Below are positions 6,053 to 46,099 of a DNA stretch of 64,000 nt, piece after piece (positions within the stretch are counted from its first letter, which is position 1; each line of letters begins with the position of its first letter). The position numbers were made by a program, and so were the translations under genes. This stretch comes from Alkalispirochaeta sp. Lineage in GTDB: Bacteria; Spirochaetota; Spirochaetia; DSM-27196; Alkalispirochaetaceae. Location of the stretch: NCBI GenBank assembly GCA_965601925.1, contig OZ271854.1, positions 3,392,001 through 3,456,000 on the forward strand, read 5' to 3'. Below the pieces are notes generated by a model. The model saw only the letters and a program-made list of their open reading frames with translations. It was not told where the DNA came from and ran no database searches.

Positions 6053-7039
6053 TCACGCTACCGGCTCCGCTTTTTGCCGCAGGTTGTTGAAGACCTTCCG
6101 GGGAACCCGCAGGCGCTCATCTTCGCCGTACAGCCTCGCAAGTTCGTCAAACCGTTCATCGGGCGAGCGCGTCAGCGCCGCAAGGCGGTCGTAGAAAGCG
6201 AGATCCTCTTCCGAGAACGTAATCTGCGCTCCGGGCGCGGCGCCCCACACGTCCCACGGGAGCATCTCCATCTTGTTCAACGCCGCCGCGTCGCGCACGA
6301 GGTTTCCGGCGATGAACCACAAGCCCCGCAAGCCCTCGTAGAAGCTGATTCCGAAGTGTTCGGGGTCCGCATGATCCTCGCGACAGCGCGTCCAGGCGTC
6401 GGCGGCGACGAGGAACCGTTCCCTCGATACATCGAGCACGTCCCAGTCGACTGCCAGCTTCTCTCGCCACACCTCGTCTAACTGGGCATCCACAACCACC
6501 CAGCGCGCCTGGTTCTCGTTCCAGTATTCGCACACCCAGTGATCTTCGTAGTGTCCGGAGCTGGTCGCAATCCTGACGGATTGCTGCTCGCCTCGGACGC
6601 GTACCGCAGAACTTGTCGAGGAACGCGTCCATGTGCGGCCGGGGCTGAAGTAGGTGGAAAAACCGCATCGGGCCCGTGCCGGGATTTCCTTGGCGCGGAG
6701 CATCGTCACGATGAGCTTGGTGAAGGCGTGGCACCGGCATCCGATCCTTTTGTCCGGCCCGCGGCGTGAGGAGAGCGGGCGGTCGTCGACGGCGACTATT
6801 CGATCGAACATCTCCCTTGCGGCGCGTACGTGGATGTCGGCGGCGCGCTCCTCAGAAAGAGCCACACCGTAGAAATCCCCCGCCACGACATCGTATATCC
6901 CGAGATGGTGCACAATCCGCACCATCTGCTCCACATCGACGGGAAGGTCCCGTAGCCGCGCGGCGTGTCCGCCCGCATCGGTCAGCGGACCGGGCGTCGC
7001 GTAGTAGTCGAGAATCCTCTTACGAGTCGTTATGTCCAT
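6053..7039 (-). CDS. Transglutaminase-like domain protein with an internal 28 aa insertion
   Basis: GCRCHAF, IPARARCGFSTYF, EDHWVCEYW, WVVVDAQ (Cys-His-Asp); GGAGGG RBS. Confidence 0.85.
   Translation of the reverse strand: MDITTRKRILDYYATPGPLTDAGGHAARLRDLPVDVEQMVRIVHHLGIYDVVAGDFYGVALSEERAADIHVRAAREMFDRIVAVDDRPLSSRRGPDKRIGCRCHAFTKLIVTMLRAKEIPARARCGFSTYFSPGRTWTRSSTSSAVRVRGEQQSVRIATSSGHYEDHWVCEYWNENQARWVVVDAQLDEVWREKLAVDWDVLDVSRERFLVAADAWTRCREDHADPEHFGISFYEGLRGLWFIAGNLVRDAAALNKMEMLPWDVWGAAPGAQITFSEEDLAFYDRLAALTRSPDERFDELARLYGEDERLRVPRKVFNNLRQKAEPVA
6555..6647. repeat. 84 bp in-frame insertion flanked by imperfect 9 bp direct repeats, containing two inverted repeats
   Basis: CCGGAGCTG at 6555 and CCGGGGCTG at 6639; GCAATCC-TGAC-GGATTGC at 6567-6584; GGACGCGT...ACGCGTCC at 6595-6630. 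Confidence 0.6.
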
Positions 7040-40189: not shown

Positions 40190-41872
40190 TTACCCCACGA
40201 TGGCCGCGAGGTCGTCCTCGACGGTGGTCGTTACCGCGAGATCGAAGGTCTCCACCAACACTTTCGCGACCCCCGGGCTGAGAAACGCCGGCAACGTCGG
40301 GCCGATCCGTACACCCTTGAACCCGAGGGCGAGGAGGGCGAGAAGCACCGCCACGGCCTTCTGTTCGTACCACGCGATGTCGAACTCGATGGGAAGATCA
40401 TTGATATCTCCCACCTCGAAGATCTCTTTTAGCTTGAGGGCAATGACCGCCAAGGAGTAGCTATCGTTGCATTGCCCCGCATCCAGAACCCGCGGAATGC
40501 CGCCTATGTCACCGAGATCGAGTTTGTTGTAGCGATACTTGGCACACCCGGCCGTAAGGATGACCGCGTCTGCCGGAAGTGCTCGAGCCATATCGGTGAA
40601 GTAGCTTCTCCCCTTCTGGCGTCCGTCGCATCCGGCCATCACGACGAACTTTTTGATCGCACCCGACTTGACCGCGTCGACTACCGTATCGGCGAGGGCT
40701 GTAACCTGGGCGTGGGCGAATCCGCCGGTAATGGTGCCGGATTCCAACTCCGTGGGCGGTGGGCAACGCTTCGCAAGCTCGATGATCTCCGAGAAGTCTT
40801 TGCGCGACTCCGGCGCTCCGTCCCGATCGGGAATGTGCGTGATACCCGGGAAGGCGACCGCTCCCGTGGTGAAGATACGCTCCTTGTACGCGTCCTTCGG
40901 GGGAACGAGGCAGTTGGTCGTCATGAGAATCGGTCCGTTGAACGACGCGAACTCCTTGTCCTGGAGCCACCACGAGTTACCGTAGTTGCCGACAAAGTGA
41001 GAGTACTTCTTGAACACCGGATAGTAGTGCGCCGGAAGCATCTCGCCGTGGGTGTACACATCGACACCGCTGTCTGCGGTCTGCTCCAGTAGCTCATGCA
41101 GATCTTTGAGATCGTGTCCCGAAATAAGGATACCCGGGCGCGTCCCGACGCCGATATTGACCTGCGTAATCTCAGGGTTCCCGTAGGTCTCCGTGTTGGC
41201 GCGGTCCAAGAGTGCCATGACGGTGACTGCCGCGTTTCCCGTATCGAGGACGAGTTGCGTGAGCTCCTCGGCCGTCCCGGCGGTGACCGTTCCCGCGAGG
41301 ATTCGTATCACTTCGCGGTAGAGGGCGGAATCCTCGTACCCCAGGACCGCCGCGTGGTCTCCGTACGCCGCGATTCCCTTCACTCCGTAGATTGTGAGCT
41401 CCCGCAGCGCCCGAGCATCTTCATCGACCTCGGCGAGGATGGACGCCTCGGGAATCATGGCGTATAGCGCCGCTATATCACCCTCCGCGGCGCTCCACTT
41501 CACCGTACGGGGCAGATCGATCGTGGGCGCATGGCGTTGAATCGTCGCCGCAACGTCCCCTTTGAGTCGGAGTGTGAGCCCTATCATGTGCGCGAGACGC
41601 GCATCGTCGAAGGTGGCGTTGGTGATGGTTGCAAAGAGGGTGTGAAAAATCGTCCGGCCGCTCTCGACAACGGTCGCCTCAAAATCGACCGCTTTTTTGG
41701 TGTCGTCCGCAATGCTGCGATCGAGAGTCTCTACCGCCAGGGCGAGACCGCGGACCGCGTATACCAGAACGTCCTGAAGATTGGCCGTCGATTCCTCTTT
41801 GCCGCACACACCGCGCACCGTACACCCGATATTGCCCGCCGCCTCCTGGCATTGAAAACAGAACATGCTCAT
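40190..41872 (-). CDS. hcp: Hybrid cluster protein (hydroxylamine/NO reductase), class I spacing
   Basis: C-X2-C-X8-C-X5-C N-terminus; SGHD, HGEM, TNC, AGCDG, AGCAK, GQCND, WYEQKA; AGGAGG RBS. Confidence 0.97.
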
Positions 41873-41920
41873 ACAATTCCTCCTGGATAGAACTCAGTCA
41901 GTTTTTTTTGTGACTTCCCC

Positions 41921-41962
41921 ATTCTCCCGCACTCCCATAGCCGTGTAATTGACCCCGGTCAA
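41921..41962 (-). promoter_or_regulatory. FNR/DNR-type class II promoter of hcp
   Basis: TTGAC-CCCG-GTCAA at 41949-41962; candidate -10 GAGAAT (minus strand, 41926-41921) puts the box at about -41.5. Confidence 0.75.
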
Positions 41963-42543
41963 TTCGGTGATGTTTTATCGCATTCCCTTTGAGACCAGGC
42001 CGAACTGACCTCCGCCCCGGTCAGTTCGTTGTTGCTTTGCCGCGCTCCCTATGAGAACAGGCCGAATTGACCTCTGCCCCGGTCAATTCGTTGGCGTTTT
42101 CTCGCATTCCCTTTGAGACCAGGCCGAACTGACCTCCGCCCCGGTCAGTTCGTTGTTGCTTTGCCGCGCTCCCTATGAGAACAGGCCGAATTGACCTCCG
42201 CCCCCGGTCGATTCGTTGGTGCTTTGCCGCGCTCCCTATGAGAACAAGCCGAATTGACCTCCCCCCCGGTCAATTCAGTGGTGCTTTGCCGCGCTCCCTA
42301 TGAGAACAAGCCGAATTGACCTCCCCCCCGGTCAATTCAGTGGTGCTTTGCCGCGCTCCCTATGAGAACAAGCCGAATTGACCTCCGCCCCCGGTCAATT
42401 CAGTGGTGCTTTGCCGCGCTCCCTATGAGAACAAGCCGAATTGACCTCCGCCCCGGTCAATTCGTTAGTGCTTTCCTACATTCCCTCTAAGAATGGGCCG
42501 AATTGACCTCTGCCTCCGGTCAATTCGGTGATGTTTTCTCGCA
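41947..42543. repeat. Non-coding tandem array, 62-63 bp period: nine hairpin palindromes GAA(T/C)TGACC-N8/9-GGTC(A/G)(A/G)TTC plus one short-loop terminal copy
   Basis: Left arms start at 42001, 42063, 42125, 42187, 42250, 42312, 42374, 42437, 42499; linkers are homologous to each other; no ORF annotated between 41914 and 42527. Confidence 0.97.
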
Positions 42544-42604
42544 GCATACTCGTGAGCGGTCGTGCACCGCCGTCAACATGTGCATATCTGGGAGTCGCTA
42601 CGTG

Positions 42605-43471
42605 CTACTCCGGCAGCCTCGTGTCGTTCGCGAACTCGTCGAGGTGCCCGCCGCAGCGGATCGCAATTCGTAGTTCCTCGTGGAGTCGGTCCAGGCGGTG
42701 TAATTTCCGCGCCATCTCCACCTCCGCGTCGTTTCGCCGAATGACGTCGGTGACGCCGCCACGGGACAGGACGATTCTTCTTGAGGCGGAGAGCGCCAGG
42801 GACGGGTCGTGGGTGACGACCAGTACGATCTTGTCGGCCCCGCTCAAGAACGCAATCGCCTCGTGACGGTTGATTCCGGCGTTCTCGATCTCGTCTATGA
42901 GGACGATCGGCGAGACCGAGAGGAGGGCCGTGTCGGCTATCATAAGAGAGCGGGACTGCCCGCCGCTCAGTTCGGTGAGCTCGCGATCGGCGTCGATGGG
43001 CTCCCCGGTCAAGCGGTTGGCCGCCTCGATCACTTCGCAGACGACCGACTCGTCCACCTCGATGCCGCGGCTCTCTCCGTGAAGCTCCAAAAACTCGCGT
43101 ACCGTCGCGTCCATGACGAAGTTCATGTTCTGCGAAAGCTGCGCGACCAACCGTCCGCCGCCGGCGTAGCGACGCGACAGATCGGGCTCCTCTCCGTTGA
43201 TGCGTATCGAGCGTCCCGTGGGCGTATCTCCCTGGGCGAGCCACTCGATGTCCGCGAGGAGACGGCTTTTGCCGCTGCCGGTGGAGCCGACGATACACAC
43301 CACCTCCCCGGAAGAGATCGTCAACTCCTCGTACGTCTCCGCCGCGCCGGACTTGTCGTGTCCCGGCAGGATCGTCACGGTCTCGACCTCATGCTCGTTA
43401 TGAAGTGTCTCCGATTCGCCGGTGAGTGCCGCGATCGCTTCCGCGACCGACACGTCGTTCGTCGTTTTCAT
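42605..43471 (-). CDS. ABC-type ATPase with no adjacent permease
   Basis: GSTGSGKS, LSQNMNF, LSGGQ, VLIDE, VTHD. Confidence 0.92.
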   Translation of the reverse strand: MKTTNDVSVAEAIAALTGESETLHNEHEVETVTILPGHDKSGAAETYEELTISSGEVVCIVGSTGSGKSRLLADIEWLAQGDTPTGRSIRINGEEPDLSRRYAGGGRLVAQLSQNMNFVMDATVREFLELHGESRGIEVDESVVCEVIEAANRLTGEPIDADRELTELSGGQSRSLMIADTALLSVSPIVLIDEIENAGINRHEAIAFLSGADKIVLVVTHDPSLALSASRRIVLSRGGVTDVIRRNDAEVEMARKLHRLDRLHEELRIAIRCGGHLDEFANDTRLPE

Positions 43472-44175
43472 GAATGGTAATCTCCCGAGGTGAGCTCGAT
43501 TGTCGTCACGTTGCCGATCTGGTGAGCCGATCCGATTCGCTCTTCTCCCAAACAGTAGCTACACACGGCGCTCGGCATGGGATAGCGCAGGCGCGACCCG
43601 GTCACGCCCGCCTGCTCCGGCGCCTCGTCACGCAACAGTCGCGCCAACTCGAACGCTCCCTGGCCGGTAAGGCCGTTGATCGGAAGAATGCGAGAGCGCG
43701 GATTGGCGGAGTGAACCCGGGAAGCGAAGACTTCGCGCTCCGCTTGGCTCACTACGTCGCCTTTGGTTACTACCACGACGTCGGCGGTACGGAGCATGGG
43801 GCCGACCTTACGCGGCGTGTTTATACCACTTAAGTTGTCGATGACCGCCACGGCGTAGACGTCGCGAATGTGGGGCGAACAGCGGTTGCAGAGCCCGGCG
43901 GACTCGGTGAAGAGGATCGAGAAGTCGTGGCGATCTCCCCACGCAAAGGTCCGCTCGATGTTACTGGCAAAGTAGTGGTCCGGGCAGATCGATCCGGATA
44001 GACCCTTCTGGACCGGAATGCCGGCCCGCTCGTACCGTTCGTCGTCGTCGGTGACCAAGCAGTCGAACTTGACTACACCGGTGGCGATCTCCATTCTCCG
44101 GAGCTCTTGAATCGTTTTGAGGATGACCGAGGTCTTGCCGCACGATGGAGGGCCGGCGATCGTAACGAGCTTCAT
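43468..44175 (-). CDS. UreG/HypB/CobW-like (G3E) GTPase, Cys-rich
   Basis: GPPSCGKT, ICPDH, ESAGLCNRCSP, TKGD, CSYC; ATGA coupling on both sides. Confidence 0.88.
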   Translation of the reverse strand: MKLVTIAGPPSCGKTSVILKTIQELRRMEIATGVVKFDCLVTDDDERYERAGIPVQKGLSGSICPDHYFASNIERTFAWGDRHDFSILFTESAGLCNRCSPHIRDVYAVAVIDNLSGINTPRKVGPMLRTADVVVVTKGDVVSQAEREVFASRVHSANPRSRILPINGLTGQGAFELARLLRDEAPEQAGVTGSRLRYPMPSAVCSYCLGEERIGSAHQIGNVTTIELTSGDYHS

Positions 44176-45425
44176 GATATCTTCGCTCCTCGGTGCGGCA
44201 TGCGTCCGCCGGCGTCGGTGCGGTCGGCGACGAGGCGCGAAAAGGCGGCGGTCGTCCGCTCCAAGGTTCGCGGTAGTTCGTCGGACAACAGGAGGTCCCA
44301 GCCCGGCCACTGGAGCGGATGCGCCTCGGCGTCGAAATCGTCGTTTGCAGGGTGCGTGGAAGGAAAGAGTCCGAGACGCGTCAGGACGCGGCTCATCGAC
44401 TCACCGGCGATAACGTCGATGAGGGGCTGAATTTCCGGCCTGTCGGCTCGAGTAACCAGGAGAACCGGCGCCGTCAAGGCTCCGTCTTCGGGCCACACGG
44501 CGATCAACGGACTATCTTCGGTGATGGTCCGGGTAAAGAAGTAGGGCATGATGGTGATCGCCGGACGTTCGACGTCGTTCGTCGAGGCGGGACGGGCCGA
44601 GGAGATCATCTGGGCGGGGTGCATGGACTGAAACATATTACGGGCGAGTCTCTCGATACCTTCGGTCCCGAACGTGCGCTCGACACCGATAAGGAGTGAG
44701 TCGAAGAGGTCGAAGTCGCCGATCGGCAGCGCAAGGCTATTCTCGTACTCCGGCGAGAGGATCTCGGCCCAACTCTGCGGTACCGGCCTGTCTCCCAGAA
44801 GGTCGAGATTTACCATGAAGACTGCGGGAACCACCGAGATTACCGAAAAGGCTTTGTGCGGATCCGCCAATGAGTTGACCGTGCCGAGCGTGTTGAGCCG
44901 GGGCCACCCCGTGCGGTCTGCAAAGGCGCCGGAGTCTCTCAGCGAGCGAAAGCGCCGGTCGGTGAAGAACAGCCGGAACCCGGCGGAGAGAAAGATGTCC
45001 GGCAGATCGTCCACCGTCGGTTCCGACGAGATGTGCTCCTCCAGCCACTCCGTACCGGTGTATGCTGCTTGGAGGTTGCACGTCACCGCACTTCCCGTCC
45101 GTTCGCTGAACTGTGCTACGGCGCTCTCTAAGACGTTGGTCATCGGAATACGGATAGGGCATGGAACGAGGCCCGCAATCGTCACCGGGCGCGAGGCGCC
45201 GCTACCCCGTGCACCGTGTTTCGCCGCCCCGCGGAGTCGTAACAGGAGATCGGACGGCTCCAGCCCCACGGCTATCGCCGCCGAACGGACGGTGACGGCG
45301 ACGCCGAACCGCTCGAGCACGTCGCTATCCGTTATGCGCCGAAATCCCGCGTCGGCCAAAACGGGGATCGTCTGCGGAAATGCGCCGGTCACTTCGTATA
45401 TGGTGCTCGTCTCTTGTATCTTCAT
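44172..45425 (-). CDS. DUF1858-like domain fused to an ABC substrate-binding fold; no signal peptide
   Basis: N-terminal TIYEVTGAFPQTIPVLADAGF...AVGLEPSDLL; GLVPCPIRIP, PQSWAEILSPEY, VWPEDGA. Confidence 0.8.
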   Translation of the reverse strand: MKIQETSTIYEVTGAFPQTIPVLADAGFRRITDSDVLERFGVAVTVRSAAIAVGLEPSDLLLRLRGAAKHGARGSGASRPVTIAGLVPCPIRIPMTNVLESAVAQFSERTGSAVTCNLQAAYTGTEWLEEHISSEPTVDDLPDIFLSAGFRLFFTDRRFRSLRDSGAFADRTGWPRLNTLGTVNSLADPHKAFSVISVVPAVFMVNLDLLGDRPVPQSWAEILSPEYENSLALPIGDFDLFDSLLIGVERTFGTEGIERLARNMFQSMHPAQMISSARPASTNDVERPAITIMPYFFTRTITEDSPLIAVWPEDGALTAPVLLVTRADRPEIQPLIDVIAGESMSRVLTRLGLFPSTHPANDDFDAEAHPLQWPGWDLLLSDELPRTLERTTAAFSRLVADRTDAGGRMPHRGAKIS

Positions 45426-45431
45426 GGTGTT

Positions 45432-45473
45432 ACGATACGGAGCGAAAGACGATATGTAATTGACCGGGATCAA
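45432..45473 (-). promoter_or_regulatory. Second FNR/DNR-type box and candidate -10 for the SBP-GTPase-ATPase operon
   Basis: TTGAC-CGGG-ATCAA at 45460-45473, preceded by TGTAA as in the hcp box; minus-strand TATCGT at 45437-45432 with identical spacing. Confidence 0.75.
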
Positions 45474-45475
45474 GT

Positions 45476-46099
45476 ATGAACGATTTTTTTTCCGACCTGA
45501 GCGAGCGATCCATCGCCAAGCTGGAGGCAGCTCAGATAACGCGCACCGTCCCCGCCGGGGCGATGATTTTCCTCGAAGACGAGGAAGGGACGCAAATATT
45601 TCGCCTCTTGTCCGGTTCGATTCGGCTGTTTCGCACCGCGCCCGACGGTCGCGAGGTCACGATACACATGGTCCGACCCGGTGAACTCTTTGCCGAGATC
45701 GTCCTCTTCGAGCGTGATACCTATCCGGTCAGCTCGGTGACCGTTGAGGAATCGGTCGTGGCGATCATCCAGCGCAGGAGGGTACTGGCCCTCTTGGGCG
45801 ACGCGGCGTTTCGCGAGGAGTTCCTGCGTAACATCGTCGGTAAGATGCGCTTTCTCTCTCAACAGTTGTACATTTTGGCAACAATGGATGTCCGGCGTCG
45901 GTTGATTCGCTTTTTAGAGGTTCGCTACGGTCGAAAAGGTGCGATCGAGAGCGAGCTCTCCAAGCGTGACACCGCCGCAGCCATCTCCGTGCGTCCCGAG
46001 ACCCTCTCACGCACCCTCGCCGCCTTGAGCGACGAGGGGCTTTTGGAGTGGAAGGGCCGTCGGATTACCGTCGACGCCGCGGCGTGGAACGAGGTGTAG
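45476..46099 (+). CDS. Crp/Fnr family regulator (HcpR/DNR-like, no cysteines)
   Basis: cNMP-type domain GELFAE; recognition helix RPETLSR (ExxSR, FNR-type). Confidence 0.92.
   Translation: MNDFFSDLSERSIAKLEAAQITRTVPAGAMIFLEDEEGTQIFRLLSGSIRLFRTAPDGREVTIHMVRPGELFAEIVLFERDTYPVSSVTVEESVVAIIQRRRVLALLGDAAFREEFLRNIVGKMRFLSQQLYILATMDVRRRLIRFLEVRYGRKGAIESELSKRDTAAAISVRPETLSRTLAALSDEGLLEWKGRRITVDAAAWNEV

Follow-up and report, generated by a model that had tools for sequence, protein, structure and literature searches.

Bacterial REP/BIME elements, which are associated with TnpA-REP/RAYT proteins, are extragenic palindromes of 20–60 nt that carry a short conserved purine-rich tag and are patchily distributed between related genomes (PMC3733652, PMC8266576, PMC5581495). 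Clusters of REP sequences can be reiterated in tandem together with flanking DNA (PMC3733652). A different type of extragenic repeat occurs in promoters of Mycobacterium tuberculosis, where tandem repeats of the MIRU-VNTR type at lpdA, dop and cysG consist of imperfect units of the 54–57 bp class with variable G-runs, lie directly upstream of the gene, and vary in copy number with consequences for expression (PMC12817950). Two further systems concern hcp itself. The HcpR1 binding motif has been defined as wyTTGACnnnnGTCAArw (PMC1274295), and the SnoA locus of Bacteroides thetaiotaomicron encodes a single antisense RNA that overlaps the hcp promoter, has a hairpin over the HcpR site, forms a ternary complex, and is conserved in several Bacteroides (PMC13370916).

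Here we analyze a stretch of 64,000 nt from the genome of an Alkalispirochaeta sp. (contig OZ271854.1, positions 3,392,001 to 3,456,000; hereafter the window), in which an array of nine palindromic units precedes the nitric-oxide-stress gene hcp. Like REP/BIME elements, the array consists of short extragenic palindromes that carry a purine-rich tag, are repeated head to tail along with their flanks, and occur patchily among related genomes. It differs from them in that its tag is the 9-mer GGGGC(A/G)GAG and not GTAG or CGTC, and in that the arms of the unit appear to derive from a transcription-factor box. The tag is common to four other arrays of the genome, which carry different hairpins, yet in the hcp units the compensatory change places it in the loop, where REP elements have an unpaired tag 5′ of the stem. 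Moreover, the hcp unit resides at a single locus instead of forming a dispersed family, and no Y1 gene, including a cognate RAYT gene, was found in the genome. As in the M. tuberculosis promoters, imperfect units with variable G-runs are arranged head to tail directly upstream of a promoter; unlike those repeats, the hcp units contain no −10 element at the conserved offset, are not intact regulator sites, and are known from one sample. The two single boxes of the locus fit the HcpR1 motif, flank hcp and a divergent regulator gene and are conserved in relatives, whereas the nine array units, with their N10/11 spacing, do not fit it. SnoA, with its hairpin built on the HcpR site of an hcp promoter, is by analogy the nearest functional precedent, and differs from the array in that the latter comprises nine copies upstream of the box, occurs in one genome, and is known from DNA alone. 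No published tandem array at an hcp promoter was found in a literature search that lacked most subscription journals, and the accessible portions of three reports (10.1101/2022.05.22.493013, 10.1101/279083, PMC5581495) did not contain the tag GGGGC(A/G)GAG.

The hcp locus and its HcpR-type boxes

The hcp gene (40190..41872, minus strand) encodes a hybrid cluster (prismane) protein of 560 amino acids (PF03063, E 3e-163). Upstream of it, also on the minus strand, lie genes for an ABC-type ATPase, the last before the array (42605..43471; PF00005), a CobW/HypB/UreG-type GTPase (43468..44310; PF02492), and a DUF1858 and solute-binding protein (44172..45425; PF13343, PF08984). The likely start codon of the latter is the ATG at 45425, which, judged from the arrangement of a box followed by 22 nt and TATCGT, would belong to a leaderless transcript. 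A divergent gene (45476..46099, plus strand) encodes an HcpR-like regulator of the Crp/Fnr family (PF00027, PF13545) with the recognition helix RPETLSR, whose ETLSR fits the ExxSR helix of Crp/Fnr proteins that, according to the original prediction, read TTGA half-sites.

A matrix derived from 14 distinct boxes of relatives (scores of the training boxes, 19.0–28.3) was used to scan the 5.05 Mb genome. The two best sites both fell into this locus. The first is a canonical HcpR1-type box, TTGAC-N4-GTCAA, in the hcp promoter (41949..41962; score 24.5), which is fused to the proximal end of the array, and the second (45460..45473; score 23.4) ends 2 nt ahead of the regulator start codon, an offset also found in 11 of 17 relatives. 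The third-best site in the genome, at G000:C1:837665, scored 18.2. Between 45423 and 45476, a single box serves two back-to-back genes; it is also placed to drive the likely leaderless transcript in the direction opposite to the regulator gene. Among the relatives, 15 of 17 regulator loci have a box within 150 nt upstream. A −10-like hexamer is located 22 nt beyond each box, namely GAGAAT for hcp (41921..41926, minus strand) and TATCGT for the box at 45460. The offset is as in the relatives, where the corresponding hexamer carries A as its second and T as its sixth base for 12 of 16 boxes. The predicted transcription start of hcp lies near 41914. Owing to the high-ranking box and the −10-like hexamer at the relatives’ offset, hcp has an ordinary predicted class II activator promoter, and the intact single box at 41949–41962 is likely the switch of hcp.

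Structure of the array

The gap between the ATPase gene, which ends at 42605, and hcp, which starts at 41872, holds nine palindromes with starts at 42002, 42064, 42126, 42188, 42251, 42313, 42375, 42438, and 42500. They are spaced by 62, 62, 62, 63, 62, 62, 63, and 62 bp and thus form units of 62–63 bp in head-to-tail orientation; TRF reported a period of 62 with 9.2 copies, 87% matches, and a score of 787. Together with a terminal direct repeat, the 561 bp of repeated sequence extend over 41957..42543 (minus strand). Stop codons in all six frames of 41873–42604 rule out a hidden ORF. Each unit has arms of the type GAA(T/C)TGACC and their complement around a C-rich loop of 8–9 nt, so that the half-sites are arranged as TTGAC-N10/11-GTCAA. 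In unit 2 (42001..42029, minus strand), for example, 10-bp arms enclose the loop GGGGCGGAG. Units 2 and 4 show a compensatory change across the loop, which supports the hairpin register initially proposed. The original prediction was accurate regarding the number and spacing of the units, the lack of a covering ORF, and the presence of half-sites of the locus’s own box at N10–11 instead of N4.

The linkers between the palindromes fall into three variants of a single sequence. Just 3 nt distinguish unit 2 from unit 4, no difference exists between units 6 and 7, and unit 10 differs by 14–18 from all others, which indicates several rounds of copying. A tenth palindrome, at 41949–41962, is the canonical N4 box, whose upstream arm is common to the array. 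Direct repeats of 26 nt (minus strand) mark the two ends of the array: the proximal copy (41957..41982) takes in the upstream arm of the box and is identical in 25 of 26 positions to the distal copy (42518..42543), with one mismatch. Taking out the 561 bp between these repeats leaves a plain single-box promoter.

The array is real. All seven short-read unitigs checked had sequencing depths of ~30, 56–59, and 120 where the assembly predicts one, two, and four copies, respectively. The reads come from a single sample, possibly that from which the assembly derives, sequenced in four runs whose contigs cover the array. The proportionality of depth and copy number rules out an assembly artefact. 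As to copy number within this sample, one contig of run X3 skips 186 nt and has three other letters past the joint.

Distribution of the array and its unit

An hcp match was obtained in 32 of 60 relatives, which are mostly represented by fragmented assemblies and include no close strain. Upstream DNA was compared in 25 of them; five more loci were left out because the gene start was missing, and one of the 25 regions comprised just 15 nt. The single box is kept in 16 of these 25 regions and the array was detected by TRF in none, the repeats seen there being one of 18 nt and one of 12 nt. G019 has the same order of ATPase gene, box, and hcp, with 15 nt between stop codon and box compared to 642 in the array genome.

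Searches for the unit by BLASTN, nhmmer, and a covariance model, the last among 150 of 561 candidates scored, yielded no second locus in the genome, and a DNA search of the 60 relatives matched only the coding end of hcp. With the covariance model, for which 54 candidates were scored in each genome, nothing convincing emerged from the remaining 98 genomes of the order; the best match outside the array genome (E 1e-4) lay inside a long ORF. A pattern search in 99 genomes of the order, which required exact arms and which diverged arrays would escape, returned scattered single matches only, four of them in genus g17 corresponding to a conserved intergenic stretch without repeats. Similar scans of sequence collections gave 44 metagenome and 61 genome loci, none of which had hcp, the regulator, or a Y1 gene (tblastn) or matched past the palindrome. 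As far as these searches reach, the array is lineage-specific. The unit matched no Rfam family at threshold (three matches, E 0.11–5.5, all far under the gathering score). A CRISPR array was rejected, since the linkers are three variants and not unique spacers and no Rfam CRISPR match was obtained; no cas family was found by Pfam among the ten neighbouring proteins scanned. CRISPR-like repeats with unique spacers and a period of 66–67 occur elsewhere, at G000:C1:453732-464936.

Tagged arrays elsewhere in the genome

TRF detected many intergenic hairpin arrays in the genome, and 34 clusters with periods of 20–150 were compared. The tag GGGG[CG][AG]GA is present in nearly every unit of five of these clusters, namely the hcp array and those at C1:267321, 2060589, 2356828, and 4987906, compared to a background of 0.8% per 62-nt unit. 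In its form GGGGC(A/G)GAG, it constitutes the palindrome loop of the hcp array (minus strand) and stands between the units of four other hairpin arrays, which are unrelated, intergenic, and have periods of 27–54. The variants CAGAG, CGGAG, and GGGAG as well as the variable length of the G-run are common to the hcp array and other arrays. Including a sixth tagged array, the G-run-tagged arrays other than hcp (5–18 copies, periods 27–54) are located at G000:C1:267321-267816, 2060589-2061002, 2356828-2357214, 4857094-4857346, and 4987906-4988134. These five have the G-run tag in common, and no hairpin common to all; the sixth, at 4857094, carries the GGGGCAAAA variant and repeats a terminator-like hairpin that resembles an adjacent one. 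The tagged arrays lie at unrelated genes and their hairpins are unrelated or only partly related. A comparison of the unit with the whole genome, as suggested in the original prediction, revealed no scattered copies of the unit itself and a recurrence of its architecture at unrelated genes.

In all six tagged arrays the tag is on the lagging-sequence strand (origin near 1.6 Mb), compared to 51% leading for the tag genome-wide; this bias corresponds to 1 in 32 (two-sided) for six arrays that were picked after seeing them. Relative to the neighbouring ORF, two arrays are in sense and four in antisense orientation. Uniform replication orientation with mixed ORF orientation points to an origin at the DNA level. 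One tagged single copy and three untagged arrays have the opposite strand orientation, and we regard the common replichore orientation of the tagged arrays as suggestive. Arrays with three tags were found in 2 of 401 genomes of the phylum, the array genome included, and are therefore not widespread in that sample.

Three of the five tagged arrays are built on a dispersed hairpin family. Its members have the form GCGTACC-[variable inner stem-loop]-GAGGAACGC, in which an internal bulge is fixed. The hairpin occurs in 43 copies in the genome (for example, at 6599–6626 of the window), in 39 of 99 genomes of the order, and in 17 of 21 genomes of the taxonomic family. Membership of the hcp unit in it was rejected, as no test sequence scored above shuffles (four of five scored, two of the five being multi-unit stretches). 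The tag is also placed differently: it forms the loop in hcp units, where the compensatory change pairs the arms across it, and sits at the base of the stem where the dispersed family occurs as single copies. Several other repeats were observed alongside these arrays. In a genome of another family, a 34-bp tandem array (L059, G034:C168), which likewise carries the GGGGGCGGAG tag, along with a related hairpin that is short, lies between convergent genes and is broken by an assembly gap. The regions C1:527400-527730 and 2356750-2357300 have near-identical AT-rich palindromic upstream DNA and a downstream hairpin, with different tandem units between them, and G000:C1:4042530-4042940 contains three 137-bp units, each of which starts with the 3′ end of a tRNA-like sequence located next to them.

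The RAYT-like transposase for which the original prediction had proposed a search was found neither with PF01797 and NF047646 nor with a custom HMM of the Y1 proteins of 24 relatives in the genome, which is 96.7% complete. Among the relatives, 21 of 24 Y1 loci compared (25 listed) have a related tag, GGGAC(A/G)GAG, upstream, in 12 of 24 in at least two copies that are partly in tandem. This sequence is one base off the tag of the array genome; the latter tag was found at one of the 24 loci. Upstream of the relatives’ Y1 genes with a Y---NP-like motif (L081–L105) lies GGGGACGGAG, at 21 of 24 loci, and it frequently forms tandem arrays whose spacers vary (L091, L105, L083). The array genome also contains an IS91-like Y2 transposase gene, split over two frames (G000:C1:3754219-3754721); it was discarded as a source, as its flanks contain no tagged hairpins.

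Origin of the array

Any account of the array has to accommodate the repeat, its fusion to the box, its loop in common with the tag of other arrays, and its absence from the relatives. These features are probably best fitted by a REP-cluster-like minisatellite that arose from the box, and not by a dedicated regulatory device. We consider it reasonably probable that the array is a non-coding hairpin minisatellite of this genome only, likely grown from the HcpR box of the hcp promoter by a process that would be the same as for the other tagged arrays, with hcp predicted to be switched by its single intact box. Among the options offered in the original prediction, a REP/BIME-like element that expanded at this site comes closest, except that dispersal of the unit and a cognate enzyme were not found.

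Such an array could have formed in three steps. On the plus strand, the palindrome reads TTGA-CCTCCG-CCCCGG-TCAA and contains two 6-bp spacers in a row, equivalent to a box with its spacer doubled. First, the box palindrome would have gained 6 bp to yield this sequence, which on the other strand places the tag GGGGCGGAG between hairpin arms. The longer palindrome and ~34 nt of flank may then have been copied head to tail, leaving the 26-nt direct repeats at the ends, and slippage or unequal exchange would finally have multiplied the units and mixed their variants. Candidate agents of the second step are a Y1 (RAYT-like) HUH enzyme that is now missing from the genome and hairpin-driven slippage at the replication fork.

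Slippage may also account for the array without any dedicated enzyme and without function, if a chance doubling of the spacer created the longer palindrome, local duplication followed, and the match to the tag reflects coincidence or a common preference for G-runs beside hairpins. Box spacers account for the loop in both of its 6-bp halves: CCCCGG is the genome’s own box spacer (in inverted orientation relative to hcp), and the spacer is exactly CCTCCG in the boxes of 2 of 16 relatives, with CCTCNN in 7 of 16. As doubling of the spacer alone can yield the tag, the latter is weakened as proof of a common mechanism and simple slippage is a real rival. It is also consistent with the lack of a detected Y1 gene, the untagged hairpin arrays in this genome, and unrelated AATTGACC/GGTCAATT tandem repeats in distant taxa. 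However, the loop variants found in the hcp units are among those that the tag shows in the other arrays, the tagged arrays have a common replication orientation, and a tagged array with a similar hairpin exists in another family (G034). We thus regard chance slippage as possible and, on balance, unlikely. Two additional proposals on how the unit relates to its surroundings were rejected. A derivation of the unit from the promoter core gave a best score of 18, a value also attained by shuffled sequences (370 of 5000 with dinucleotides and 571 of 5000 with mononucleotides shuffled) and by 197 of 5000 random windows, and a putative degenerate eleventh unit upstream was equalled by 1556 of 2000 shuffles.

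Possible functions of the array

For a minisatellite grown from the box, any effect on hcp is likely secondary and would be exerted by changes in copy number or by hairpins that form when RNA of the upstream operon extends into the array. A more specific role of the RNA is conceivable if transcription of this operon, for which induction by HcpR is predicted, continues across the array. The nine double-hairpin units could then make the upstream mRNA more stable, reduce read-through into hcp, or bind HcpR, as is reported for SnoA, the RNA with a hairpin over the HcpR site at the hcp promoter (PMC13370916). The sense strand folds well (z = −6.6) and contains three weak terminator-like sites compared to two on the other strand. 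In addition, a second, weak linker stem, which includes several U-G pairs and is workable on the sense strand, is kept in all three unit types. Across the units, 97.8% of cells are paired, and the pairing score was reached by 12 of 500 shuffles in a control that ignores the relatedness of units. Together with the kept second stem, this pairing could reflect selection on structure. However, two-sided changes are limited to 2 of 17 pairs and occur in related copies; the antisense strand folds as well (z = −9.4); the sister arrays are not oriented by transcription; and neither an Rfam family at threshold nor a covariance-model homologue elsewhere in the genome or in the 98 other genomes of the order was obtained. 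A conservation across a clade as for SnoA was likewise not observed with this model in the 99 genomes of the order (54 candidates scored each). A functional RNA therefore appears improbable to us.

Crp/Fnr dimers have a strict half-site spacing. The original prediction had considered a regulator-loading or decoy platform, with a period of about six helical turns placing all units on one face of the DNA. On such a platform, eighteen perfect or near-perfect half-sites beside the promoter would load, hold, or decoy the HcpR-like dimer and shape the induction threshold. The arms do correspond to the half-sites of the box plus flanks, are situated directly upstream of a true box, and are conserved across the units while the linker varies, a pattern also expected from hairpin-driven correction. 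The spacing TTGAC-N4-GTCAA is nevertheless found in the two single boxes and in no array unit. By arithmetic, N10/11 shifts the half-sites by 6–7 bp, or ~0.6 turn, from the N4 geometry. The best site in N4 register within the array scores 5.1, as opposed to 24.5 and 23.4 for the true boxes, and this background value is matched or exceeded at 1098 positions in the genome. A helical repeat of 10.4 bp per turn would keep the units in phase, whereas phase is lost at 10.5, with a drift of over half a turn, and at 11.1; the periods of the sister arrays correspond to 2.6, 3.5, 4.3, 4.5, and 5.1 turns. The array is also absent from the 25 relatives compared. Because of the deviating spacing, the background scores, and the phasing at 10.4 only, we do not accept a platform, which we consider very unlikely, and the units are, from their sequence, likely not proper regulator-binding sites, though weak binding to their half-sites is possible.

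Similarly remote is the bolder proposal that a tag-guided process captures a palindrome beside GGGGC(A/G)GAG, here an operator, and amplifies it in tandem, and that the product was recruited at hcp, where an HcpR-induced read-through RNA or the DNA array would titrate or recruit HcpR by its nine half-site hairpins and copy number would tune the defence against nitric oxide.

Biological significance

With the ancestral single-box state in relatives and direct repeats at its ends, the locus would clearly exemplify a repeat array that originated from a regulator’s own box. It illustrates that sequences resembling operators need not function as such when they are part of a repeat. The five arrays that have one tag in common and differ in their hairpins hint at an undescribed route to bacterial minisatellites. 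If the array tunes hcp, its copy number would act as a dial on the nitrosative-stress defence of the organism.
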